A stretch of 64,000 bases of DNA from Naegleria gruberi (taxonomy: Eukaryota). The position numbers were made by a program, and so were the translations under genes. Positions 40,592 through 58,133 of the stretch are shown here, in pieces. The stretch lies in the NCBI GenBank assembly GCA_000004985.1, contig GG738892.1, one strand, 5' to 3'. The notes below the pieces were generated by a model, which saw only the letters and a list, made by a program, of their open reading frames with translations, did no database searches and was not told the origin of the DNA. Position 1 is the first letter of the stretch. Each line of letters opens with the position of its first letter.

Positions 40592-43292
40592 ATGTCTCAA
40601 CACGAACGATTTAATTTCGATAATTCGGAGGAGGATGATTTAGAATTGATGGAAAATCTTCCTCGTGATGATGAAGATGAAGATGAAACTCTACAAACAA
40701 CAAGAAGAACAAGAATACAAAACGAAGTAAATTATAACTATAACAATAGAAAGAAGGGAATTTCTCAAACTCTAATTCAACCCGTGCTCGGATTATTGTA
40801 CAGAAAACTCATGCTCTTGAAACGCGATTGGAAAAATTCAATCATGATGATCATGTTTCCCTTGCTATTTATTGTATTAATTATATTGAGTCATATATCG
40901 TATAGACAATTATTTAAGAATTCAATGAATCCGTATGAGGCTGGAACGGAAGAGTATTACAAATGGATGGCTGATAATTCGCCTGTTTTCTTGTTGGGTC
41001 AGATGGGTAAACCAAGTAAGGCTGCTTTAATGAGTGATTTTTCGACAATACCAACTGAGAAGGAAAAAACATTTTGCATGGCTATGGTTGCGAATGGCCA
41101 ATTGTTGAAGGATAAGAATGGTAAAAAATTAATGCAAACCATTGAGAGAAGGTTGACTAATTTCATGTCTTTTTATGTGGATTTTAGAACTTTTTCAAGT
41201 ATGATGGAAATGGAAGAGGCAATGAAGAGTTCATCTGAAACTGACTATTATTTTGGAGGATATATTTTCCATCAATTGGATTTTGATTCTATGGATTTTA
41301 ATGTTACTGTCATGTATAAGAATTCAGATATGGCCACTTTGCCAACTCTTTCTCAATTGGTTCAACAAACTATTTTGGATATAGCCAGTGCTCCAAAGCA
41401 GTATAACGAAACAAGATTGGAATCTATTTTCCCATCAATTGGTATCCAATCGATTGCGTTTGGAGATCCAATATCATTGTTATTTTTGGAAAATACTATT
41501 TATTATTTGGTTATTCCAATGGTATTTATTCTTCCTCAAATAGTTTCAAATATTGTTGCTGAGGAGGAAAAGGAAACCAAGGTTCAACTCTTACTCAGCT
41601 CTGTATCAAAGAAAATGTACTGGTTCTCACATATTGTTTTTGATTCCACCCTACTGTTAATTATTTCTCTCATACAAATAATTGGAGGTACATTCATAGC
41701 ACAAGCGAAGGCATTCACAGATAATTCACCATTTGCTTATCTTTCTCTCTATTTATTTTATTCAATTTATTTCTTGACCTTTGCTTACATGTTCAGTTAC
41801 TTTTTCAAGAAGGTTGAAGATTCTCAAAGTGAGTTTTATTAACATTAATTTATTTACGATAATAATTTAAGAATGGTCTGGTTTTATTGTATCACTGACA
41901 GTAGTATTTACTTTCCTTGTATTCAAATTTTTATTTGGATACGAGACTAGTATGGCACTCAAGATTTTCTTGTGCTTTGTCATTCCTGGTTGGAATCTTT
42001 TTTACGGACTTTCAATTTTAGGACTTGCTGCTTATAATGGAACACCAATTTCATTCCTTGACATTATTTTATTTAGAAATCATGGATCTGAGATGTCTGT
42101 ATTATTGATTGTTATTATCATTTCGAGTCTTTTGAATGTTTTTGTAATGCTATCTCTTGAATACTTTGAATATTTGAAGAGAAAGCCAAATTCTTGGATT
42201 AACAGAATTATTCCTTCCTTTATTAGAAGAAAGGTACAAATGGACACTAACGAATTACCAGTTAGTGAAGTTGAACTCCAAGAAATGATTGAAAAATACT
42301 CTAATGCAGACGAAATCTTTGGTGAGAGTGAAGAGGAATCATTGGGAGGATATTCTCTCCTTGTGGAAAACGTTTTCAAATGGTATGGTGACTATTGCGC
42401 TCTTAAATCGGTCAATTTAGGGGTAAGGAAAGGAGAAATTTTTGGCTTGCTTGGTAAGAATGGTAGCTCAAAAACAACCCTATTGAAATGTATTTGTGGA
42501 TTGTCTGGAATTAGTAGAGGAAAAATATCAATTAATGGTACAAGCGTTTTTGAGAATTTCTCTGCAGAACATAGTTTGGGTGTCTGTCCTCAAAATAATA
42601 GATTGTATGAGAATTTAACAGTGTGGGAACATTTAAAGACCTATCATTTAATTCGTGGAACCTATTCCTTTGCAAATGTAACCCAATGCTTGAATACTTA
42701 CAAATTTGCTCCAGAAGATGCCAACAAAACTGTAAAGGAATTATCAGGAGGTATGAAACGTAAATTATCAGTTGCTTTGGCATTCATTGGTTCTGCTAAT
42801 TTGATTCTTCTCGACGAGCCTACATCATCTCTGGATGTTGCTACCAGAAGAGTTATTTGGTCAATTATCAAACAAATGCAAGAAAGTCACTCTATCATTC
42901 TAACTTCTCACTCTATGGAGGAAACAGAACATTTATGTAATAGAATTGGTATTATTGTTGAAGGTAAGATGGCAACAATTGGAACAAAGAATGCTCTCAA
43001 AGACAAGTATGGAAAATTCTACAAGGTCGTTATTACCAACTATGATGAAGACAATGTGGAAAGAACAAACGACTTTGTGAGAAATACTTTTGGAGAAGAG
43101 AATGTTCGCTTATTGAATCAAGTTGGAAGAACTCAAACTTTCGAAGTGTCTAACTCCATACCAATCTATGAAATCTTTGGAGAAATTAATTCACATTTGG
43201 ATGAGTATGGAATTGAAGATTATTCTGTCAGTAACACAACATTAGAGCAAGTATTTTTGAACTTTTCAAATGTTGGAGTTGTGAAAAACTAG
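40592..43292 (+). CDS. ABC transporter, TMD-NBD half-size (ABCA-like), 2 exons: join(40592..41828,41872..43292)
   Basis: The first ATG is at 40592 (the track start at 40559 is GTG). The TMD carries an ABCA-like LLKRDWKN motif and a large loop after TM1. Donor caaa|GTGAGT, a 43-nt intron and acceptor ttaag|AA continue the TM region. The NBD has Walker A GLLGKNGSSKTT, signature LSGGMKRKLSVA and Walker B ILLDEPTSSLD. Confidence 0.7.
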
Positions 43293-46200
43293 ATTAATTC
43301 CTGTTTTATTTCCATTAACGATTGCAAATTGTTGAATGACTGCATTTTAGAGTAGAGAATAGGACATTCGAGAGATAGGCATTTTTGCTCCATGGAAAAG
43401 CTAGAGTTTGGCAGTAAACCATTTGTCATATCCAGACTATGATTACAATATCTACAGAGTTCTTTTAGCTCGTTTAAACGCTTCTCTGTTGCTCTCCTTC
43501 TTAATAATAAAATAAGAGGATAACTATTGCAATCAGAACATAATAAATCTACGGTAACATCCTTCTTTGAGCTGTCAATAATCTTTCCACAACTTGAGCA
43601 AGGCCTACTCAAAGGTTGGAAGTATTGTTCAATAAAGTTTTTAGACTTTCTAAATACTTGCTTTCTCCAATCAGCCAACAAGTAAATATCCTTCTTTGGT
43701 AAATTAGTGTACCAAATATTACAATTTACAAAACTAAGCGAAAATAATCTGTCTATTGAGGGAAGTAACTGTCTTGTAATATAATAATTGTAATGAATTC
43801 GGTATTTTTGTTTGTAATTTTGAACTTGATTCATTCTGTCCTCGATGAAATATTTGGGGTGAATGACCATGTCTGAGAGTTTGGCTTTAGCTGGATTCAG
43901 TGAACTAAAAACAACTACATAGGGAACTCTTTCATTAAATCTTGGCTCTGCTCTTGGATCACGTTGCATTTCTCTGACTGCAATTCTTGCAGATGGTGGA
44001 AGATGTCTCTCCGACTTGTAATAACCCAATTTGACCTTTTTCCAGAATATGAAATCTTGCAACGAGCACTTTTCTGAAATTATTCTATAGAATTGCCTTG
44101 ATAAATATGCTTTCACTCTGGAAAAGTCCAATGATTCGAATAATATTTCCAAACTCTTTTCCATTAAAGATCTTACCATTAAACAATTATCTCTTCTGAC
44201 AGCCTCTATGCCTTTACAAAAGAGTGTTCCTTTAGTTTGTGCTGGGCTCTCATATGCCATCCCTACATATCTCTTCTTACTCACCAAATATGACGGATGG
44301 AATACTCTTTCCATTTGTAAAGTAATTGGTCTTGGATTTGCATTGGTAACGTGCTTGACAATTTCCTTTCCAAGTTTGAATGCTTCCTCTCGAGTTGAAT
44401 TTATACATTCCACAAATAAAGAGTCAGTATCTCCGTAAGCAATTCTACACTTGCCTGGAAATTTTTCATTTACAATATCAATGGCATTCTCGAGAGTAGC
44501 TCTAGCCAGTTGCACAATAGCATCTGCAAGATCAGAGAGTGGCATTCTACCAGAAAAATTTGCACTGGTATAACCATAGGTAACGTTGGCAATCAGTTTC
44601 AAACCAAGCTGTCTTGCATTTAAAATTCTTTGAGTTTCTTTATCATCCTTGCTAGTTTCCTTCATAGCTTGTTTAACCATAATTCTAGTATTCAAAATTT
44701 CAGAGCACATTCTTGGTAGAACACCTTGTCTTACGTTTGGCTTGACAAATAGGCATTGATTAGGCGTTATGAAAATGTCCTCTTCTATTGAATCCGATCC
44801 TGTTCTATCCTGGAGTAACTTCCTCAACTCGTTATTAGGTTCATAGTTTTCCAGAGTTCCTAGCTTTGTTTTCTTCCTATCCACAAATGCCAACTTTCCA
44901 AGACATGTACTGTAGCACAAATTATAGGCAATTATAATGGATGGATAAAGTGATTGAAAGTCCAAGACAATCATTGGATTGGTGTAGAGTTTGCTTTGGG
45001 GCTCCATAACCAGTGGCAAGCATTCAATGGCTGCTTGTTCCATAACTTGTTTTCTTGTTGGGGAAAGAGCAACATAATTCCTCAATCTGGCCAATCTCAA
45101 CATCATGCTCTCCACTCTGTACTGACTTCCTCTACTTATAACAGAAAAGAACTCAATTCCATAAACCTTTCCCAACTCTCCCGTTCTATTCAAAATATCC
45201 AAATGGTTTAGTACCTCGAGGGTCACACTCGTTTTAATCAGATAATATTGAAGAATAACCCTGTACTCAAAACTATCTTTTTCGTGTGAGCATGAGTGTG
45301 AAAGATCGGTGAGAGTTTGATGTGAATAGAATGGAATTCTCCTTCCCAAAACATTAAAAACCACATTGTGAAGGGTATACATGTCCAGTTTAAGCTCTCC
45401 ATTCATAATTCTCCATACATTCATAACGACTCTTCCTTTAATCATCACTCCAGACTGTTTGTTTCTTGCGTATTCCTGTGCCTTCTTTAAGGCCTTTTCT
45501 CTTTGGAAGTTATTGGAGGTGTTGGTGGCCTTTTTCTTATCAACTTTTGGTTTATCACTTTGAAAATTGGCAACTCTAGAAATTTCAAAGCAAACATTTC
45601 TTCCCATCACGAGAAATCCTCTTTCTATGAGATAACCCAATCCTTCAGTTTGAATTTCATAACCCAATAAAATATCTGGGTCGACCTTACAAAGTACATC
45701 AATAAATCCTTCATACAGGTCTTTTTCATTTTTAAATTCTATAACTCTATCAAAATGTGTTGGGAAAGCAAGAGGTCTCTGAGCAGCATCATCTGCTTCC
45801 ATTTCTCTATTGACAAGTAGCCAATGCTCCAAACTCTCAGCAATATTCGCACAATTCTGGTAAGTGATTACTATTGTTTGAACTGAGTCATAGAGTGGAT
45901 TAGGTAGAAACGTTGCTCTCGTTAAAACGTGACATTCAATACACATGACTGATAGGTTTTGCTTGGACACCAAATCTTTCTTTTTCTTATTATCTCTAGG
46001 TATTGCTGCCTCGTCGAAAGCAATCTTTTTTCTCTCACTCATAACAGATAATTCTGACAAGAGGGATTGATATTCTGGAGCTCTATTCCTGAGAGTATTA
46101 GGTGTGTTATTCAGGGAGAGTAATTTCCTAGCTGTGAGTGAGGAAGCAACATCCAATATTGGTTCGTCATACTGTGGAGATAGTGGTCTGTGTATTTCTT

Positions 46201-49200
46201 CGATATCGGCTATTACTGGCTTTTTCTCTTGAGATAACTCTTCATAAACCATCGATAATGAAGGTGGTTTGGGAGCAAAATCTAGAATAAGCTTTCCAAA
46301 CTTTTTGTGAACAGGTCTTTCAATAGGATTTAGTTTTGATTTGAAATTTAGAAACGGTAATTCCTTATAATCTTTGCTCTTGGGCATTTCTTCGTTCAAT
46401 TTTTTCTTTCCAAATATCGAAGAAAATCTAATTAGACTACTTCTTTTGCTTTCCAAATAATCGTCATGTGAACTAAAAAATGGATAATTTTCCATTTGCC
46501 TTATCAATCCTTTATAAGCAATAGCTGACTCATGCAGTTCATTCTCCAATGCTTCAATAGAGGGTGGTTCCTTAAAGTCCAAAATTAGGTTTCCGCTTCT
46601 TACCACCGAAGAAGAATCTGTTTCATTTAAAGTTACAACAATTGGAGATGTTTCGTTGGAGATTGTTGTAATTGCTGATGGTTCGAACTTTTCCGAAGGT
46701 GGTGAAATGTCAATCATTGGAGGTGTTAGTTCCACATTGAAAACCTTTTCCAAGAACTCTTCTTCCTCTTGTTGTACTTCAGGTTGTTCCTCTTCTGCAA
46801 TGGTAGGTATGATAATTGGTGATTGGAAGGGAGAATTAACTTGTTTAGCAATATTAGATGCCAAAGGAGGGCTAGTCTCAGTAGGCTCCTCTTGTATTAT
46901 TGGAGGAGTAGGTTGAATCGATGAAGAGGAACTCGAGTTTGCTGCAAAATTAAACCTATCTGGATCAAAGCTTTCCAAAGCTTGTTCCATCATGAGTGTT
47001 GAGACTGTAATATCTTCAGAAGGTTTATCTTGGGGCAGATGCTTTGCTTGACTAAAGAAATTGTCAAAAAAGAAATTATCATTGGTAGATTGAGGTGTGA
47101 CTTCTGTTTCACTTGGCTGCTCTTCGTCTGCGAAGGATATTTTTCGTTTCTTTGCTGGCAGTAGAACTTTCCTTTCATAGTTTTGCAAAATTTGTTTTGA
47201 TTCTGATGACAGAGGTTTGTATTCATCTTTCCTTACTGAATATTCAAATCTGCAAAAGAAGGTATCCTCATTGTGGTCAGTGAACTCCTCGGGAAGACTT
47301 GTCTGGTCATACAGGGAGCTTGGCATTTGCACATTTGGTGGCATATTCCTAAAGTAATCGTCTACCACCAAAACTTTGCATTTCCCAACAACAGTTTCGA
47401 AGGGATTGGTATCAGATTGTGAAATTAGGAAAATTTCACTTACTCCTGTCCAATCTCGAGCTCCAGTTTTAGTTTCTTCTGGTCTGTAGAACCACCTGAC
47501 TTGTATTGTCTTTTTTTCGTTATTCTTATCAAGAATACATGCAATATAAGGTTTAGAGTTTTTAGGAGCTCTCATATAGACAAAATCTCCAATATTTACA
47601 GATTCAATGGTGATACGCTTGTTTTGCTTTCTTGATTTAGTTTCAGGATGCGTACCATCAAACTGAGGAATAAATTCAACAACATCCTCACCCTCACTAT
47701 CAGATGATACATTCCACTCTTCATCTGAAACTTGTTCTTCCTCTTCATCGACGTGGAATATTTGTTCGTTACCAGAGAAAACTTCCTTCATTGAGTTGAG
47801 CATTTCTTGCTCGTCTTGAATCAGGGAATCTTCACTCTCCTCCTCTTCATTATCTTCTTCATCCTCTTGGTAATCTCCCAAATTATTATATTCATCCTCC
47901 TTCAATTCAAAATCCTTGTCTCTCATCCAATTCAATACATTTTCCAACTCTAAATCTCCCTGTGTTAGTTGAATATTAAAAAGTGCATTACCTTGCCCAA
48001 AGTATGAGTTGTCTCGAGAGGCTAGATAAATTTCTTTAATTTCTTCATAGGTCTGAAAGGCTGTTGGAAATTTTGAAAGGAAATCATTCAGCTCTTGTTG
48101 TGATTTTTTGAGATTTGAGTCTTGTTGCTGTGGAGTTGCCGATTTTTGACTGAAAGCTTTTGGTAGTTGACTTGTCAGAATTAGAGATTCATTTTCTTGC
48201 TCAACCTGATGTTTTGCATCATAGTTATCATCTCTATTCATATTTTCAACTATTTTCATCAAATTGTCATACATGTATCCTTCCAATTCATTTTGTGGTC
48301 TTTTTTCTTGCCTCTCAAAGGGTGAACATGGAATGAATGGTTGAGAAGCCTTCTCCAAAGATCGCCTTCTTCTCCTTTCTTCTTCCCAAATAACATTAAG
48401 AGATCGAATCAATTTTCTTTCCTTTCCAAAAGACTCTTCCTTTTCATCCTCTAACGAAAGTTGCAAATCCACAATATCTTTTCTATTCATTACATCCCTC
48501 GAAAAGGCGTCCATTTCAATTTCACATTTAGACAATCGTTTGACATTATCTGGAAGAATGGTACCGTATTGAATGGCATTCTGACTTGAAATTTTGTCAG
48601 CAGCCATATCATCCCGAAACGAATTGAATGGTAAACGAAAGTACAACTTTTCCACACTCAAATCACCCATACCATACAAATTATAGTCCATCATAAATTG
48701 AAGAGGGAATGGGATATGTGCTTCGTAGACTGAAAAACGATGACCCATCACAGTTCCATTCCCAAACATGGCTGCCATCTTTCCAACATGACTCGGATTG
48801 TACACATAAACCTTTAGAAATAACTTGTGATTGAACCAATAACCATAAAATGGTTTTCCAGAAACTAGTACAATATCATGAACAAATTGTCTCGGGTGAA
48901 TGTGAAATGAAGGCTGTTGTTGTGGATTATTCTTCAATGTCCTTTCGTATTGATTGAGAGTGTGTCCAAAAAGAGATTGATGAAAGGTATCTTCAATACT
49001 TGCTCCCAAAACTGAAATGAATTGATTAACTTTTTTCATGTCCATATTTTGATAAATGCTTGTTAAATCATCACTATCATCATTATTACTACTATTAATA
49101 TTACTATTATTTTGATTAGAATTTGATGAAAATAATTCATGAGGAAACGACAACATAAAGTACGGATACAATTGATGAACATGAAGACAAGCCTTTTGTT

Positions 49201-49348
49201 TTGTTTCCTGCACTGTGCCATACACGTGCATAATTGGCACTAAATCTATTTGTCTATTTGCAAAAAACCAACACTTCCTATCATCAAATAACGCCTGTGG
49301 AGTACACATCGAATACTCGAGCGATAGAATTTGAATATTGACGACCAT
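43289..49348 (-). CDS. REV3: DNA polymerase zeta catalytic subunit (REV3), 2019 aa, with an embedded BAH-like domain
   Basis: Single ORF with an ATG start. B-family polymerase motifs (DxxSLYPSII, KxxxNSxYG, YGDTDSLFV) and the C-terminal CysA/CysB metal-binding modules (CSSCG...CSDCN; CRYCNHSL...CLSLECP). The N-terminal MVVNIQILSLEY...HVHQLYPYF matches the REV3/Pol-delta N-terminal domain. See findings for the BAH segment. Confidence 0.9.
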   Translation of the reverse strand: MVVNIQILSLEYSMCTPQALFDDRKCWFFANRQIDLVPIMHVYGTVQETKQKACLHVHQLYPYFMLSFPHELFSSNSNQNNSNINSSNNDDSDDLTSIYQNMDMKKVNQFISVLGASIEDTFHQSLFGHTLNQYERTLKNNPQQQPSFHIHPRQFVHDIVLVSGKPFYGYWFNHKLFLKVYVYNPSHVGKMAAMFGNGTVMGHRFSVYEAHIPFPLQFMMDYNLYGMGDLSVEKLYFRLPFNSFRDDMAADKISSQNAIQYGTILPDNVKRLSKCEIEMDAFSRDVMNRKDIVDLQLSLEDEKEESFGKERKLIRSLNVIWEEERRRRRSLEKASQPFIPCSPFERQEKRPQNELEGYMYDNLMKIVENMNRDDNYDAKHQVEQENESLILTSQLPKAFSQKSATPQQQDSNLKKSQQELNDFLSKFPTAFQTYEEIKEIYLASRDNSYFGQGNALFNIQLTQGDLELENVLNWMRDKDFELKEDEYNNLGDYQEDEEDNEEEESEDSLIQDEQEMLNSMKEVFSGNEQIFHVDEEEEQVSDEEWNVSSDSEGEDVVEFIPQFDGTHPETKSRKQNKRITIESVNIGDFVYMRAPKNSKPYIACILDKNNEKKTIQVRWFYRPEETKTGARDWTGVSEIFLISQSDTNPFETVVGKCKVLVVDDYFRNMPPNVQMPSSLYDQTSLPEEFTDHNEDTFFCRFEYSVRKDEYKPLSSESKQILQNYERKVLLPAKKRKISFADEEQPSETEVTPQSTNDNFFFDNFFSQAKHLPQDKPSEDITVSTLMMEQALESFDPDRFNFAANSSSSSSIQPTPPIIQEEPTETSPPLASNIAKQVNSPFQSPIIIPTIAEEEQPEVQQEEEEFLEKVFNVELTPPMIDISPPSEKFEPSAITTISNETSPIVVTLNETDSSSVVRSGNLILDFKEPPSIEALENELHESAIAYKGLIRQMENYPFFSSHDDYLESKRSSLIRFSSIFGKKKLNEEMPKSKDYKELPFLNFKSKLNPIERPVHKKFGKLILDFAPKPPSLSMVYEELSQEKKPVIADIEEIHRPLSPQYDEPILDVASSLTARKLLSLNNTPNTLRNRAPEYQSLLSELSVMSERKKIAFDEAAIPRDNKKKKDLVSKQNLSVMCIECHVLTRATFLPNPLYDSVQTIVITYQNCANIAESLEHWLLVNREMEADDAAQRPLAFPTHFDRVIEFKNEKDLYEGFIDVLCKVDPDILLGYEIQTEGLGYLIERGFLVMGRNVCFEISRVANFQSDKPKVDKKKATNTSNNFQREKALKKAQEYARNKQSGVMIKGRVVMNVWRIMNGELKLDMYTLHNVVFNVLGRRIPFYSHQTLTDLSHSCSHEKDSFEYRVILQYYLIKTSVTLEVLNHLDILNRTGELGKVYGIEFFSVISRGSQYRVESMMLRLARLRNYVALSPTRKQVMEQAAIECLPLVMEPQSKLYTNPMIVLDFQSLYPSIIIAYNLCYSTCLGKLAFVDRKKTKLGTLENYEPNNELRKLLQDRTGSDSIEEDIFITPNQCLFVKPNVRQGVLPRMCSEILNTRIMVKQAMKETSKDDKETQRILNARQLGLKLIANVTYGYTSANFSGRMPLSDLADAIVQLARATLENAIDIVNEKFPGKCRIAYGDTDSLFVECINSTREEAFKLGKEIVKHVTNANPRPITLQMERVFHPSYLVSKKRYVGMAYESPAQTKGTLFCKGIEAVRRDNCLMVRSLMEKSLEILFESLDFSRVKAYLSRQFYRIISEKCSLQDFIFWKKVKLGYYKSERHLPPSARIAVREMQRDPRAEPRFNERVPYVVVFSSLNPAKAKLSDMVIHPKYFIEDRMNQVQNYKQKYRIHYNYYITRQLLPSIDRLFSLSFVNCNIWYTNLPKKDIYLLADWRKQVFRKSKNFIEQYFQPLSRPCSSCGKIIDSSKKDVTVDLLCSDCNSYPLILLLRRRATEKRLNELKELCRYCNHSLDMTNGLLPNSSFSMEQKCLSLECPILYSKMQSFNNLQSLMEIKQELI

Positions 49349-50951: not shown

Positions 50952-52519
50952 TTACTTATTTACTTTACATAATTCTTTCCATTCCTTATAATTGACCATG
51001 TAAGGTTTCAAAATCCTTTCAAATTCTTCAAATGGTACTAAACCTGATTTAGCATCTTGAATAATTGAATCCTTTGCATCAAAATGCATAATCTTATCAT
51101 TGAACACAATCTTTACAAAGTGTTGACCACGTTTCAACTTGTTAACATACAATTCAAAAACCAATGTTGAAGCAAAAGGAGGCCAAACACCATCGTACAA
51201 GTTCAAAGTAACCAACAATGGAATGAGAGTAGTGTCGTGTCCTAAATAAATTTCCAATCTCCTACGATCAAGATCCTTACTTGTATCAATTGACTTTTTC
51301 ATTGAATCAACAAGTTCCTTCACCAACATTCCATTATTCATTCTCAACAAATCCATTCCACCAAAAAGTACAAATCCACTTGCTCCAACTCTTTTGTTGA
51401 TGTAATCATAATCAGCTTCAGTAATTCCCTTTGGTAATGAATGGCCATGGAACAACATTCCAGCAAATGCATTATTCAAAGATTCCCTTGATAATTAAAA
51501 TTAAATATAAGATAACTCTAATAATGGAACTTACCACTGTGGAAAATCTCTGACTTGTCTAATTTGCTTCGATTCCAACAAGCCCTTTTCGTGTGGAGGT
51601 TGACTCTGTGGTTGCTCTTCAACAATATTCTTCTCATTAGCATAGAACAAGTCCAACAATCTTGCCTTGATATCTTGGAGACCTGCATCATGTTCTCCAT
51701 CTTCATTCAATTTCTTAATTCTTTGCGAAATTATTCCACCCAACTTGGCACAAACCTTAAAGTGTCCATACAATGTTTCTCTTGCTATTGTTTTCCATAA
51801 ATTAAATTATTCGAAACACAAAGAAACTCACCTTCTTCATACATGTGAATAGTTGGATAGTATGCTTGATTCGATCCTAAAAATCCTTGCAACAAGTACA
51901 TGAGTGAGAATTCAGTTCTTCTACTTCTAATATCACTCGATCTCACATACATACTATTAATAATATCCTTATAATCCATCACCTTGTCACCATCAATAGC
52001 AAATAACTTTTTAAAATACACCTCTCTCAAATGTTCTCCAACTTTAAACATTTGAATAGCTCCTGCCTCAGTCAATTGTCCCTTCATACAATTTCCAAGC
52101 AAATCCAATCCATCCTTTTCAAAAATTGTATTAAATTTACCATAATCCAATCCAGAAATCGACTCAAAAGGTAGACACTTCCAAGGAGTACTATCAATGT
52201 AATTCGGAAGAGAATTTATGGGTGTTCTTGCTCCGTGTCGATTAATAATTTGAACCTTGATCAATTCTAAATCTTCACTTTCCGATCGGAAGGGAAAATA
52301 ATGTTCTTGAACGTCTTCTGCCTGAATCATGAACGAATGATTTACATTCATCATATTCCTCATTGAATTATTCTCTTCATTGTTATTATCATGTTCGCTA
52401 TTTTTAGCAAAATATCCCAAACTTCCTGCCAATAGAGTGGTCGTCGTGCCCAAGATTGTTTTAAAGTAGTGTCGATGCATTTTTTTTATAAGCTTAAAGT
52501 TTTCAGTGCGAAAAATCAT
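50952..52519 (-). CDS. histidine acid phosphatase (branch 2), 3 exons: join(50952..51486,51535..51784,51832..52519)
   Basis: RHGARTP catalytic motif in exon 1 and the HDTT proton-donor motif (YLGHDTTLIPLL) in exon 3. Donors gaag|GTGAGT and tg|GTAAGT, acceptors caatag| and tatcaag|, introns 47 and 48 nt. Phases are consistent (1, 2). Confidence 0.7.
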
Positions 52520-52924
52520 CTCGGGAAAATATAACTTATTGTAATGAAAGAAGAACTTTGAAGGTTTGATTCGTTGGAGGACATTAAATTATTCCTCACT
52601 CCCGAGGATGTACATCGTGTACAGCTTAGCTAATTTTTGTAAAGTGTGAAAAATGTGTGAAAATTATTTATTGTAAATGTTTGGTACTGCCATTATCACT
52701 GCTTCGATGTGAAAGAGAACCTGATGATTTGGGAGTTGGACCTTCAACAAGTGGAACGATTCGATTCTTCTTTGTATTGCCTGCTGTATTTGAAAAGGTG
52801 TGAATTTCCATTTCTTGAACTTCTTCATCCTTTAATTCCTTCTTGTGAGTTGATTGATGTCCAGTTGGAGTTGGTAAAGATTGAGCTGAATCTTGTTTTT
52901 CAATTTCATCAAAATCTACATTTC

Positions 52925-55900
52925 TTAAAGCTCCATAAGTACGTTTTGTCTTCTCCACAATTCTCTAAACATATCCTCACTAATAAGAACTTGACCACCA
53001 TGAGCAGCTGCTTCAATTCTTGCAGAAGTATTAATGGTTGTTCCATAATAATCTGGTCTTCTCATAGTCTTGTCAAATATTTGTTCTGCTTGCCCAAAAT
53101 GAAGACCAATCCTAACTCGCAATCCATTCCAAATTAATTCCTTTGTCTTTTCATTCCATTGAGTTCTACAATCCCATTGTTGAAGTAATTCAGGAGGCCA
53201 ATTACATGCCATCAAATCATGTTGACAGGCAATACTCCAATCCAAAGCATCGACAGCACTCTTGAATACCACATAAAAACTATCACCATTTGTCTTGACC
53301 TCAAATCCTCTGAAGGCTTCCAAATTCTTTCTGAGAACTTCATTGTGTAATTTCAAAGCTTCTCTCATGGCCTTGGCATCAGCTTCCCAAAGAACAGTGC
53401 TATTTTGAACATCTGTGAATGCACAAGCAATATTACCAGTCTTTGGAGCATATGTTGTGTTTCCTTGTCTTGTCTTGAGATATCTCCAATATATGATACC
53501 AATACATCCTAGAATTGAGAAGAATATTACAAGAGATAGAACAATCATTGCAATTTGAAGCTTAGTGACTGCTGGTGGAACAATGGCAACTCCACATGTA
53601 CTAAATGAAAAATCAAAGGAAATATCAGTGAATGAAGTTGTACCATTCTCAACATTGAGAGAAGAGAGCAAAACAGATCGAGGTCCTTGATTGCAATCAC
53701 AAGAGCTACTTGCTGATGAATAACTAGTTGCACAATCACCTGTTGCAACAGTGATATTGGCTACATTATTAGTTGAGGAACATTCCAAACCAAATGGGCC
53801 CATAGTTGTTAGTCCAGCAATATCGTAAACATAATTTGAAAAGATTGTACTGAAGAAATCAGGTAAGGTAACAGTGGAGGTAAATTTTTCTTGATAAATT
53901 CTGGTAAAAACAGTTTCCAAAAAGAAACCAAACAGGTAACCTTCCAATGTTTCATGAGTTGCTGGTTCAGAATATTGGTAATTGGCTAAAAATTGATTGA
54001 TAAATGTCTTTTTCTTTTCAGATTGAATGGTTTCAACACTGCTACAGACAGATTCCTGTTTGACAACTGGAGCAATATTGATTCTAGGCACAATGAGGAA
54101 ATTTGTGGACATGTCAGGATGTTTGGTATATAAATTATTCAATCCCTTTTCAAACAGTAAACTATAGGTCTCTGAAGGAATAGCAATCTTGATGGTCGGA
54201 TTAAAACTGAGAATAGCCTCAATCCAAGATATTGATTCTGTTTCATGAGCAAGAATAATGACTGCCTCAATATTTTGATTGGAAAGTTGGATTGCAGTTG
54301 AGGTTGGATTACTCACAACATCAAAAACTTCCAATCCAACATCATAATTCTCAATATATTCCTTAATGGATGGTATTGTTTTTGTTGTATAATATCCAAT
54401 TGGTGAATAGAGAATTGAAGCTTGTCCGTAGGTTTGCTTAAAATATTTCATTTGGGCAATTACTTCATCAAATACTGATGGTCTCCAATTAATAAAGTAT
54501 TTAGAGTATGGTTTTCTATATTCTAGCGAACCAGCCAAGACAAACATTGGAATTTGATACTTTTTCAAAATATCCGTCACATTTCCATATTGATCAACAC
54601 TCAATCTCAAATTACTTCCAAAAAAGCCAAATACACCCTGTTTTGTGGAAAGGGATTGTAACTTGTATTCGAGACCATATTTCTCAACTTCTCCAGAAAA
54701 ATATTCTGTGTGAATTTCAATTTTTTGAGATGCTTTGGAATTGTAAACAGTGAGATAGGTTTGAAGACCTCTTGAATAGGCATCATATGAATGAGGTGCC
54801 TCAGATATCAAATCCAATTTTCCTGCCTTTGTGGAACTGTCATCATCATAGGGAATAAGACGACCGAATATAATTGGTTTTGAAATTACACTAGAAATGG
54901 AATCTGCCAATCCACTTCTTCTATAGGTTCCCTTATAATCTTGGAATGCACAAGAAGCTGTATCATATTGTTTGGTAAATGTCTCAGTAAAAACAGATCC
55001 GGAATAGGAGTATAAAAACCCAGTTCTCAATCCCAAATTACATGGATTGGTGGCAGATTTAGAAAACGCTCCAAAAGTTATACCAGTTTCAGATTCCTTA
55101 ATTACAGATTGAGTATAGACATAATCCATAAACGATTTTTTGGTAATTTGATTTCCCACTGTATCCACTATTGTGGTAATAAATTTTCCAATATAATAAC
55201 CTTCCAAAGTTCTTTTGTGTGCCCAAACTGATGAATCCGAAGGATAGTAATCCTTGATTACCTTGTTAAACTCTGTAACAAATGAATTTGAGCTTGATGA
55301 AAATGATGGGATGTGAGAAACATAGAAAACTTGGAATGGAGAGGATGGATTCACGTTAGCTGCTAAGAATGATTTCATCTTGGTTTCTACATGATCAGAA
55401 AAATAAGAATTAATCAGATAAATACTCAATCCCTTTCTGAAAACTGGATTGGTTGTGTAGGTGAGCTGAATCTTTGAAAGTATAGATACAATGCTATCAT
55501 AACTATCAAAGAGAGTAATGAGTAAAACTTGTGGATTGGCATTACTAGTCAATTCATCAATGATTGTATCCAATGATTTAAGGCCTGAATCTGAATTGAT
55601 GATAGAAGATTGACTGTCAATATTCAAATTAATAATATTCATCATGGTGGAAAATGTTTGGAAAGCTTCACTTGAATACGGGCAATCAGGTTTGTAAATA
55701 ACACTCATTCTAGATTGAGCTTGTTTCATACTATAAGTAATTAAAGTTCCCAATTGTTCTGTCAATGTCAAGTGTAAATTCATAACAGGAGAATAGAACG
55801 AGCTCCTAAGAGTTCTCAAATTTGTAGCAGCAATCACACTAGCAATATCTGAATACTCACTGTTTTGTTTGATATCAAGAGTTTGTGCATTATTAATTCC

Positions 55901-58133
55901 ATCCAAATTGAGTACACCCTCTGTGAAACCAACCAATGCAACAGATTCATGCAAATTCTTTAATTCTCTTGTGTTGAAGAGAAGTGAACTAGAATCGTTG
56001 TGATAAAGAGTTTTCAATTCGATTTGCAATTTGTCAGAGGAAACTTTGGAATTTCTTCTCTTGAAAGCAGCTTGAATTCCCTTTCTTAACATTTCATCTT
56101 GAAGATTTTCTTTTTCAATGGATTGACCAAATATTATTGGTTTCTTGAGAATGGATGTATCTGAAATGCAAGATCCATATTCGTACCATGAAAGTTGTTT
56201 AAAAACTGAGAATGAAACATTGGAAACGTATGGTGTTTTTCCAATATTAACAGAACTCAAATAAACAATCTTGAGTCCTTGATTGCAATTTGAAGCACAA
56301 CTAACAGATGTTGCATTGGCAGAGAATGGTAAATATTGATCATAGACATTGGCACTTTCACACCATTTGAAATTGACCTTGGTTCCATCAAAAACAAATG
56401 AACCACCATTATTAGTCTCAGAATTACCTGCAGTATAATCAATGTAAGATGTTGCAATAAAATTTGATCTTGTTAAATCACCTATAATAGTTTTGAGCAT
56501 TGAATAGGCAAGCTTTCCAGTCAAATAACCCTCGAGTTCAATAAATGTTGGTTGAAAGGTAGAAACGTCCTTTCCAGTTGCTTTCAGATAAGCCTTTCTA
56601 GCTCTGTGATAAGACCTCACAACTGGTACTGTCAAATCCATTGGACTCGGCACGACTTGTGAAATGATAACATTATCCGTATAATATGTCGATGCAAATT
56701 TTAAAGAAGGCAAAGGGGATTGATTCAAATCATCAGTCAGGGCAGCACTTCCAACAAAACTAACTGTCAAGAATATCATTTCACTTGCCTTTTCATATCC
56801 GTAATTTGTTCCGTTAGCAGAGAAGGCCACATTCTTTACCATTTTGATATATTTTGAAAGTGGAGCATACGTTCCAACAAGTACAATTGCCTCAGGATTA
56901 CACTTTCCAATCGTATAGAAGGCATCTTCAACTGCCAATGTATTTCTAGTGTACAGACCTGTAGAGCAGAGTGAAATGTTCATTCGTGAGACGAGGGATC
57001 TGTTAATTCCGTTAAAACCAGCAATACCAAAGGCATCATTCTGATACATGATACTAATTCTTCTGATGAGTTTGGTATTTACAAGCCAATCAACCATGGC
57101 AGCAGTTTCATCATCATACGAAGCTCTCAAATTAATAACATTTGGATAGAAAGGTGTTCTAAGCCAACCAACTCCAGTGAATGAACCAAGAAGTGGAATG
57201 GAAGTTTTAGTAACATCTGGAAAGACTGCACTAACAGTTGGTGTTCCTATTATATCAATATTCAATTCATTAATAACATGTATATGGAGGAATAAATAGG
57301 TGATGATGGTAGTTTAGATTAAATAAGAACAGAGGAACTGTTACTACTTACCAACATATCCAATTAATCCAAATATTTTACTAACATCTACACTTGTAAT
57401 AAATTGAGGAGATGATGAGTTAAGGTAAGGCTGATAAATAAGCGAGCTGGTAGGGGGTGTTGTATTATAGAGAAAGAAGTCGGTATTAATCTTTGTATTG
57501 GTAGGCTCATAGGCATCATCTAATTGTACAATTTTATCACATGTTTACATTATTTTCATCGTTCATGTATTCAATGTATTCAATACCCAAAACATAATAA
57601 TATAAATTAAATACCGACCGAACAACAATATTACATACCCAAAGTTAAGAGTTTCAGCTTTTTGTTATTCCAAACTCCTCCCATAGAATTAACTTCTTCA
57701 AAAGCCGCTAAAATTCCATCTCTCATTTCAGTTCCCAATCTAAAGTAACAATATCATGAAGAAAGAAAGTATATTAAGGGAATTTCAAAAATAATTACAT
57801 GTTCTTTCCAATGCATAGAACTTACTTTTTAGAAAGGCCAGTGAGTGGAGCTGACTGTGCAAACCATATTTCCTGTTCGTTATTCCACAGCACAGTGTCT
57901 TCCCAAGGTCGTTTCGGCGATATTGCTGTTGTTGACGACGAGCCGTTCAGTTCGACCATTATTAAAAGTGTTACTAGGAGGAGGATTGATATTGTTGTGA
58001 TGAAGGAAGAGTAGAATGCTCTGAAATGTTGCTGTTGTGGTCTTCCTCTTGCTGCCTGATGATGAGAATGAGGTAGGCTGTTAGAGAGGCACTTGGCCTT
58101 ATTTAACCTCAATATGTCCACTCGTTGTAGCAT
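52925..58133 (-). CDS. receptor-type class III adenylyl/guanylyl cyclase with a signal peptide, periplasmic-binding-protein (ANF-receptor/LivK-like) ectodomains, one TM helix and a C-terminal cyclase domain. At least 4 exons: join(52925..57246,57349..57519,57629..57729,57826..58133). The 3' end possibly continues in another frame to 52668.
   Basis: Exon 1 is ATG (58131-58133) ...FITTISILLLVTLLIMVELNG (signal/anchor) ...WEDTVLWNNEQEIWFAQSAPLTGLSKK | GTAAGT. Exon 2 is LGTEMRDGILAAFEEVNSMGGVWNNKKLKLLTL (PBP-type motif) | GTATGT. Exon 3 is DDAYEPTNTKINTDFF... Exon 4 is the 1446-codon ORF containing the TM helix LQIAMIVLSLVIFFSILGCIGIIYW and the cyclase core IACAFTDVQNSTVLWE...FEVKTNGDSFYVVF...IWNGLRVRIGLHFG...YYGTTINTSARIE..GGQVLISEDMF. 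The domain order mirrors kinetoplastid receptor adenylate cyclases. The exon 3 donor is ambiguous: the phase argument favours gtaa|GTAGTA over ttg|GTAAGT. Confidence 0.65.

Follow-up and report, generated by a model that had tools for sequence, protein, structure and literature searches.

According to a review, receptor-type cyclases are 'a hallmark of trypanosomatids'; they combine two flytrap modules with a transmembrane helix and a cyclase domain and become active when their cyclase domains dimerise (PMC6027212). A gene of comparable layout lies on the minus strand, at positions 52925-58133, of a 64,000-nucleotide (nt) stretch of Naegleria gruberi DNA (GenBank assembly GCA_000004985.1, contig GG738892.1), which is referred to as the window hereafter. 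An earlier note on this DNA had read the gene as a kinetoplastid-style receptor nucleotidyl cyclase within a fungus-like genome. The locus thus raises two questions: to which organism and family such a gene belongs, and whether this particular copy encodes a working enzyme. Our analysis places it in a family of receptor-type class III adenylate cyclases found in Heterolobosea, while the encoded catalytic domain lacks its last part, the β7-β8 hairpin. The explanation we favor, and consider probable, is a N. gruberi receptor-type adenylate cyclase gene of which this copy is damaged after helix α5, its product being a poor or dead enzyme.

Gene identity and gene model

The list of open reading frames (ORFs) contains a minus-strand ORF of 1446 codons at 52925-57265. 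The full gene comprises four exons on the same strand, running from an ATG at 58133 to a TAA at 52925, with a coding sequence of 4899 nt that corresponds to 1632 amino acids (aa). These ends are exactly those given in the earlier note. Three 5' exons are linked to the main ORF by GT-AG introns, which measure 86, 119 and 105 nt and have GTAAGT or GTATGT as donor. In a full-length alignment with seven homologues, all three splice junctions were colinear with homologues from N. gruberi, Naegleria fowleri and Naegleria lovaniensis, and since this colinearity across three Naegleria species is uninterrupted, we regard the junctions as validated.

The spliced protein is 100% identical, across 95% of its length, to a predicted N. 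gruberi protein that is uncharacterised (EFC40540.1, XP_002673284.1, UniProt D2VRX6). Thus the gene is real, the locus is N. gruberi NAEGRDRAFT_71740, and, because of this identity, the host is N. gruberi rather than an organism with a fungus-like genome. Naegleria is a heterolobosean amoeboflagellate, and the Heterolobosea belong to the Discoba together with the Euglenozoa, which include the kinetoplastids. Consequently, the taxonomic surprise disappears, as Naegleria and the kinetoplastids share the same supergroup.

The cyclase domain and its catalytic residues

The C-terminal part of the protein is a class III cyclase homology domain that extends from β1 to α5. It matched the Pfam family Guanylate_cyc (PF00211) with an E-value of 7e-20 and 71.8 bits, compared to a cut-off of 21.9, over profile positions 2-156 of 183. 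A phmmer search against the PDB led to the Trypanosoma brucei cyclases GRESAG4.3 and GRESAG4.1 (1fx4, E 1.7e-25; 1fx2, E 6e-24), followed by a mycobacterial cyclase (4e-9). The alignment to 1fx4 and 1fx2 ends at about chain residue 185 of 231-235. An AlphaFold model of the domain reached a predicted local distance difference test (pLDDT) value of 92 and closes with a terminal helix after β6, without β7-β8. Foldseek ranked the structures for this model as the sequence search had done (1fx4 and 1fx2 both with E 4e-14 and template-modelling scores of 0.78-0.81).

All peptides that the earlier note had quoted, ILAAFEEVNSMGGVWNNKKLKLLTLDD, FEVKTNGDSFYVVF, IWNGLRVRIGLHFG, YYGTTINTSARIE and GGQVLISEDM, are present in the protein. 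Its reading of a signal/anchor, an ectodomain of periplasmic binding protein (PBP) type, one transmembrane helix and a class III cyclase, the layout of kinetoplastid receptor cyclases, is borne out by Pfam, hydropathy, hhalign, AlphaFold and Foldseek. When the 1446-aa main-exon product and the three modules of the ectodomain were scanned against Pfam, only PBP-type and cyclase families were returned.

Seven canonical catalytic residues are kept. D1471 (FTD, β1) and D1514 (NGD, β2-β3 loop), the metal-binding pair, align with the invariant Asp columns. R1571 (RVRIG, β4) corresponds to the arginine that contacts the triphosphate, N1598 and R1602 (INTSAR, α4) to the residues acting on the ribose and the transition state, and the base-recognition positions are occupied by K1510 (VKTNGD) and D1591 (PDYYG). 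Given the roles of these residues in class III cyclases, where Lys/Asp denotes adenylate and Glu/Cys guanylate specificity (PMC2576301), K1510 and D1591 form the adenylate pair, and ATP is therefore the predicted substrate and cAMP the predicted product. The earlier note had left the choice between cAMP and cGMP to this very pair.

A receptor guanylyl cyclase that makes cGMP is accordingly a highly improbable alternative. The ectodomain gives a weak match to the Pfam family ANF_receptor, and the name of the Pfam cyclase family covers both types of enzyme. Animal receptor guanylyl cyclases of the ANP receptor type also resemble the window protein in their flytrap ectodomain, single transmembrane helix and class III domain, and they are active as dimers. 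However, the specificity positions of these enzymes follow the Glu/Cys and not the Lys/Asp rule (PMC2576301), the Pfam scan showed no kinase-homology domain in the window protein, and the latter has three flytraps. We therefore consider guanylate cyclase activity effectively excluded.

Loss of the metal-binding Asp pair or of the substrate-binding residues would have marked the protein as a pseudo-cyclase according to the earlier note. Both are intact. Yet the class III fold is incomplete, since neither the alignment nor any of the three reading frames nor the AlphaFold model contains the β7-β8 hairpin, which carries the triphosphate-positioning Lys, so that the condition set by the earlier note applies in part.

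The 3' end of the gene

What is expected at this place can be seen from five homologues (P0002, P0003, P0004, P0007 and P0008; related proteins carry such numbers throughout). Following GGQVLISEDMF.ELW, they possess a long low-complexity insert, the motif DLGEF.LKGL....LF.. and a tail. If the insert is removed, the motif aligns with residues of about 196-217 of GRESAG4.3 and with the last strands of the mycobacterial cyclase Ma1120, and because of this alignment we equate it with the β7-β8 hairpin. The Lys in the β7-β8 loop positions the triphosphate and is conserved in class III cyclases (PMC2576301). In the window copy, the frame-0 product ends with ...ISEDMFRELWRRQNVLMEL directly before the stop codon, and from position 53000 to the next gene at 52519 neither the DLGEF.LKGL motif nor a β7-β8 hairpin was found in the three frames. 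Thus β7-β8 is absent from the encoded domain, be it through a deletion or through an assembly fault.

At the same place the reading frame shifts. With one A added to the A4 run at 52944-52947, both frames would be joined and the product would read ...ELWRRQKRTYGALRN...; the tail frame +2 is open over a length that shuffling yields by chance with a probability of about 7e-4. The closest homologues have tails with KRSFSLLLRN and NRIVPVV, to which the tail segments KRTYGALRN and NRIVPLV are similar (motifs KR[ST][YF]..L.RN and NR[IV]VP[LV]V); this likeness is not significant by itself (shuffle p 0.06-0.3) and serves as a hint only, so that we rely on the open-frame statistic. About 150 nt past the stop of the tail ORF, the first exon of a histidine acid phosphatase begins (51785-52519, minus strand; His_Phos_2, RHGARTP motif), so that a hidden cyclase exon would have no space there.

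The public gene model XP_002673284.1 treats both ends of the gene differently. It begins at an internal Met (MVELNG; region 57957-58133) and thereby loses the N-terminal hydrophobic segment. Toward the 3' end it contains a 38-nt 'intron' (52953-52990, GTTCTT...AG) through which the tail frame is reached. This intron restores the frame, but it deletes the conserved VLISEDMFRELW and is far shorter than the 86-119 nt of the other introns, and we thus regard it as an annotation device. A 27-nt mini-intron (GTACTT...TAG) leading from the stop region to the tail was tried as well and does not restore the frame. The public model is therefore probably wrong at both ends, where it drops the signal/anchor and cuts residues of the catalytic domain by an invented intron. 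To find independent DNA or RNA covering the 3' end, the proteins P0001, P0006 and P0002 and the large ORF were looked up by exact match, without result. An exact pattern over the junction, with 0-2 extra bases allowed, gave no match in metagenome contigs either.

How should this end be read? The simplest reading is that the gene is intact apart from a single deletion whose length is not divisible by three, while an assembly fault in the low-complexity stretch is the alternative. In either case this copy has probably been damaged recently or mis-assembled. Since β7-β8 and its triphosphate-positioning Lys are removed, the product alone is probably a poor or dead cyclase. Several points weigh against damage. 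The evidence for deletion and frameshift comes from one public assembly. For another flytrap-cyclase paralogue of N. gruberi, P0006 (NAEGRDRAFT_58846), the public model ends without β7-β8 as well, and given P0006, forms lacking the hairpin could be a real subgroup. Furthermore, a 4.9-kb frame that is otherwise perfect and keeps seven catalytic residues fits a working gene as well as it fits a very recent lesion. The end of P0006 itself could reflect an incomplete gene model or a second truncated copy.

Two further scenarios could be envisioned. First, the gene might encode a fully functional ligand-gated adenylate cyclase, either because the 3' assembly is wrong (a collapsed low-complexity stretch, a miscounted A-run, or both) or because a domain ending at α5 works. 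We give this scenario a real but clearly minor chance. The long ORF is intact, its three introns are correct, the seven catalytic residues are conserved, the tail frame +2 is open (p about 7e-4) and can be restored by one A in 52944-52947, and the shortened domain is predicted with high confidence (pLDDT 92). However, even a restored frame encodes no β7-β8 between 53000 and the next gene at 52519, although the hairpin Lys is conserved in class III cyclases (PMC2576301) and the five closest homologues that are complete retain the hairpin. For an assembly error to be the cause, it would need to conceal roughly 0.3-0.6 kb.

Second, the copy might be a selected pseudo-cyclase or half-site subunit that pairs with an intact paralogue such as P0002, to which it would donate the metal-binding Asp residues or which it would titrate. 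Class III cyclases are dimers with composite sites, and the mammalian C1/C2 pair is asymmetric (PMC6027212; PMC2576301); the remainder of the gene looks as if it were under constraint, and P0006 provides a second N. gruberi paralogue model without β7-β8. We nevertheless consider such a subunit unlikely: the frame shift at the junction resembles damage rather than design, no second genome or orthologue with a conserved truncated form was found, and the homologues from N. fowleri and N. lovaniensis that are nearest to the pair of window protein and P0002 are complete, while the P0006 end may stem from an incomplete gene model. For this copy we thus rank a compromised enzyme first, a normal enzyme hidden by an assembly error second, and a selected pseudo-cyclase or half-site partner third.

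Ectodomain and membrane topology

A hydropathy scan revealed two hydrophobic segments only, the signal/anchor at aa 40-60 and the transmembrane helix at aa 1422-1446, which bracket an ectodomain of 1350 aa. The homologues P0002 and P0003 carry signal peptides directly before the same conserved block that is found at the N-terminus of the window protein. In the alignment with seven homologues, a unit reaching from a '(K)P(I)IFGQS' block to 'LEGY ... GP(F/Y)G ... C.CNQG ... C' occurs three times in the ectodomain. By hhalign, the corresponding modules are homologous to each other: module 1 versus module 2 with E 1e-46 and a probability of 100%, 2 versus 3 with E 1e-28, and 1 versus 3 with E 9e-22. 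Based on this repeat pattern and the hhalign matches, the ectodomain consists of three tandem homologous modules (aa 88-559, 560-980 and 981-1411). The earlier note had spoken of a second module further in; further modules do exist, while their total is three.

Module 1 matched Peripla_BP_6 (PF13458) with E 3e-19 and, weakly, ANF_receptor (PF01094) with E 4e-4, so that the two ectodomain families proposed in the earlier note were recovered alongside PF00211. Module 3 gave a weak PF13458 match (E 0.008), and the Pfam scan of the three modules yielded no match of its own for module 2. Module 1 was modelled with AlphaFold from 21 aligned homologous modules, and the model reached a pLDDT of 84 and a predicted template-modelling score (pTM) of 0.89. 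Its best Foldseek hit was 4kv7, a probable leucine/isoleucine/valine (LIV)-binding protein (E 2e-29; template-modelling score on the target, 0.87). Lower in the ranking come LivK, AmiC, proteins that bind urea or aromatic acids, and the calcium-sensing receptor (CaSR) flytrap. A module-1-type profile (A2) likewise found 4kv7 in the PDB with E 7e-83. Module 1 thus has the profile match and the modelled two-lobed α/β fold of a type I PBP or Venus flytrap, and modules 2 and 3 are assigned to the same fold via hhalign. Both look degenerate and may be spacers or transmission elements.

The ectodomain contains 13 N-glycosylation sequons, and conserved cysteines close each module, which fits an extracellular location. 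Each module shares fold and family with the bacterial LIV-binding proteins (PF13458; 4kv7, LivJ/LivK). However, the bacterial proteins serve an ABC transporter, whereas the modules of the window protein are arranged in tandem, bear sequons, are tethered to the membrane, have an additional Cys-rich stalk and are fused to an enzyme.

Two observations on the flytrap module go beyond this gene. With profile A2, 4kv7, which is a PBP of the planctomycete Rhodopirellula baltica, scored far ahead of LivJ/LivK of Escherichia coli (7e-83 compared to about 1e-8), and this hints at one specific bacterial PBP subfamily as the nearest relative of the eukaryotic module. In addition, the same flytrap module with its C.CNQG stalk is fused to other membrane parts in other organisms (proteins P0009-P0018). 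It is combined with a class C seven-transmembrane receptor (PF00003) in P0009-P0012, P0016 and P0017, with GCC2_GCC3 and TRP-like multi-pass regions in P0013-P0015, and with HAMP and a methyl-accepting chemotaxis signalling domain in the bacterial-looking P0018.

Kinetoplastid or fungal relationship of the catalytic domain

The earlier note had lined up the conserved blocks of the cyclase domain with ESAG4/GRESAG4-type receptor cyclases rather than with fungal Cyr1-type cyclases. An exhaustive phmmer search of 1.84 billion representatives returned 22,233 relatives, and names were looked up for 20 of the 150 matches listed. These 20 comprise heteroloboseans (N. lovaniensis, Willaertia magna, Acrasis kona), diplonemids, the ancyromonad Fabomonas and the fungal Cyr1-type enzyme (Neurospora cr-1). 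In direct comparison with the cyclase domain of the window protein, Neurospora cr-1 reached 45% identity and 159 bits with 1 gap over 165 residues, while GRESAG4.3 reached 32% identity and 104 bits with 16 gaps. Thus the T. brucei enzymes are the best matches among solved structures, but the catalytic domain is nearer to Neurospora cr-1, and the preference over Cyr1-type cyclases does not hold. Within the α3-β4 region, termed Δ-subdomain in trypanosomes (PMC6027212), the window protein has an insertion that is 16 residues shorter than that of GRESAG4.3 and colinear with the fungal and diplonemid versions.

A bootstrapped neighbour-joining tree of cyclase domains (165 columns) grouped the window protein with P0002 (92%) and these two with the N. 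fowleri and N. lovaniensis proteins (91%), while the heterolobosean clade as a whole was weak (59%). The deep nodes are unresolved with 22-45% support, and GRESAG4.3 falls outside the heterolobosean clade without being its sister. Neither the scores of cr-1 and GRESAG4.3 nor the tree thus relate the catalytic domain specifically to kinetoplastid ones to the exclusion of other eukaryotes. When the catalytic domain was used by itself in a word-indexed homology search, only 4 matches were obtained. With a mixed catalytic-domain alignment (A3), the same search was dominated by bacterial cyclases with STAND-ATPases and provided no information on eukaryotic relatives.

It is the architecture, and not the sequence of the catalytic domain, that is kinetoplastid-like. 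With the T. brucei ESAG4/GRESAG4 proteins the window protein shares a flytrap/PBP ectodomain, one transmembrane helix, one cytosolic class III domain, the Lys/Asp pair and a variable C-terminal tail. However, ESAG4/GRESAG4 proteins have two flytraps (PMC6027212) instead of three, the catalytic identity is only 32-34%, the tree shows no sister relation, and β7-β8 is missing in the window copy.

Fungal Cyr1-type cyclases are defined by Ras-association, leucine-rich repeat (LRR) and PP2C-like regions, which precede the catalytic domain, and have neither an ectodomain nor a transmembrane helix. Neurospora cr-1 provides the closest catalytic domain outside the Heterolobosea among the named matches compared directly, and it shares the short α3-β4 insertion WPPE.L....C. 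In contrast, Ras-association, LRR and PP2C regions did not appear in our Pfam scans, and the window protein is a receptor that has both an ectodomain and a transmembrane helix.

That a kinetoplastid-type cyclase was acquired by a fungus-like genome, or stands as an anomaly in one, is the least credible explanation of all. T. brucei GRESAG4 does provide the best solved-structure matches, but the idea is refuted by the identity of the organism, N. gruberi, and by the tree, in which the gene nests among heterolobosean paralogues and homologues, and the fungal Cyr1-type domain is more similar than the kinetoplastid one. Moreover, the GC content is uniform along the window (about 0.31-0.38), and the neighboring ORFs are ordinary eukaryotic ones, encoding a REV3-like polymerase, an ankyrin-kinase, LRR and Sel1 proteins, an ABC ATPase and a histidine phosphatase. 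Neither GC content nor neighboring genes of the window show a sign of foreign DNA, and a foreign or fungal origin is effectively excluded.

Among the relatives of the catalytic domain, diplonemids (Diplonema, Hemistasia, Sulcionema, Namystynia) and Fabomonas possess 2-5 tandem cyclase domains of the same subclass per polypeptide (P0028, P0029, P0033, P0034, P0048, P0053 and P0055). A PBP domain was not detected in the one such protein that was scanned.

The heterolobosean family

The closest homologues of the window protein are P0002 of N. gruberi (48% identity) and proteins of N. fowleri and N. lovaniensis (46%). PBP modules together with a cyclase domain were also found in Acrasis kona, Willaertia magna, further N. 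lovaniensis proteins and two metagenomic proteins. NAEGRDRAFT_53734, N. fowleri FDP41_010035, N. lovaniensis C9374_011605 and A. kona KAL0486290, the latter annotated as 'adenylate cyclase', are true members of the family. The heterolobosean PBP-cyclases share 46-48% full-length identity, the three-module ectodomain, the transmembrane helix and the cyclase domain with the window protein. However, they keep the low-complexity insert, β7-β8 (DLGEF.LKGL....LF) and an in-frame tail, and the window copy lacks all three.

Two Pfam families, PF25493 and PF25495, are named 'Adenylate cyclase, periplasmic binding protein-like domain'. Five of eight family members matched PF25493 (best E 2e-17), as did the Acrasis protein with E 2e-18, and three of eight matched PF25495, for which the best E-value among the PBP-cyclase relatives was 3e-7. 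For the window protein itself, PF25495 reached an E-value of only 0.03-0.16 and PF25493 was not reported.

Parts of this picture are already known: the protein has been deposited as NAEGRDRAFT_71740 with its Pfam domains, and a large cyclase repertoire of Naegleria has been published, namely 'at least 81' membrane-type cyclases (PMC9928731, echoing the genome paper of 2010). In the literature searched, the NAEGRDRAFT_71740 identifiers are not mentioned, and we found no paper that links Naegleria to flytrap-type receptor cyclases. What is new is the end which, as assembled, has no β7-β8 and a frame-shifted tail, relative to close homologues that are complete.

Proposed mechanism

From its domain architecture, the protein is a type I membrane protein in which a signal/anchor, three tandem LivK-like flytraps outside the cell and a single transmembrane helix precede the cytosolic cyclase domain. 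If kinetoplastid receptor cyclases and receptor guanylyl cyclases are taken as models (PMC6027212), members of the family most likely act as dimers under the control of a ligand. A small ligand would bind in a flytrap cleft, most likely that of the membrane-distal module 1, since it is the only module that keeps a strong signature of LIV-binding proteins. Binding might then alter the geometry of a receptor dimer, such that two cyclase domains pair head-to-tail and form two ATP active sites at their interface, where Lys1510 and Asp1591 would select ATP for conversion into cAMP.

As assembled, the window copy has a deletion directly behind helix α5 that also shifts the frame; β7-β8 with the triphosphate Lys is thereby removed and the C-terminal tail disconnected. 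One recent lesion, or an assembly error at the low-complexity stretch, in an otherwise intact gene is the most likely cause.

Coordinates and neighboring genes

The coordinates of all features are given in Table 1. At lower window positions, a minus-strand ORF of 2019 aa (43289-49348) encodes a REV3/Pol-zeta-like family B DNA polymerase with a BAH domain (PF01426, E 1e-17, aa 583-713). To our knowledge, this combination is not usual for REV3.

Table 1. Features of the N. gruberi NAEGRDRAFT_71740 gene, in window coordinates.
Feature	Position	Strand	Remarks
Exon 1	57826..58133	-	start codon 58133-58131; signal/anchor aa 40-60 (57954-58016) and start of flytrap module 1; from sequence reading and translation
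Exon 2	57639..57739	-	encodes LGTEMRDGILAAFEEVNSMGGVWNNKKLKLLTL; flanking introns GTAAGT...TTTAG (86 nt) and GTATGT...ATTAG (119 nt); colinear with homologues
Exon 3	57352..57519	-	downstream intron 57247-57351, 105 nt, GTAAGT...AATAG
Exon 4 (large)	52925..57246	-	assembled sequence stops at TAA 52925-52927
Venus-flytrap/type I PBP module 1	56147..57872	-	aa 88-559, spans three introns; best-kept LIV-binding-protein-like motifs
Flytrap module 2	54884..56146	-	aa 560-980; divergent; linked by hhalign
Flytrap module 3	53591..54883	-	aa 981-1411; membrane-proximal, ends in Cys-rich C.CNQG...C stalk
Transmembrane helix, single	53486..53560	-	aa 1422-1446; hydropathy maximum 2.86; basic stretch RYLKTR after the helix
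Class III cyclase homology domain, β1 to α5	52949..53452	-	aa 1458-1625
Putative deletion and frameshift junction	52938..52951	-	ELWRRQ in frame 0, KRTYGALRN in frame +2; A4 run is the T-run 52944-52947 on the plus strand; from three-frame translation
Open tail, frame +2	52668..52943	-	about 92 codons; ORF 52668-52958

Implications

As a discovery, this single gene matters little. One might speculate that the layout of flytrap, transmembrane helix and cyclase is ancestral to the Discoba and that this copy is a natural, non-catalytic or half-site subunit without β7-β8, which works only if paired with intact paralogues; we regard this combination as doubtful. Two aspects reach further. The flytrap receptor-cyclase layout is common in free-living heteroloboseans (Naegleria, Willaertia and Acrasis) and is thus not confined to trypanosomatids. 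Furthermore, with the window copy nature provides a case in which it can be tested if the β7-β8 hairpin is dispensable for a class III cyclase domain.

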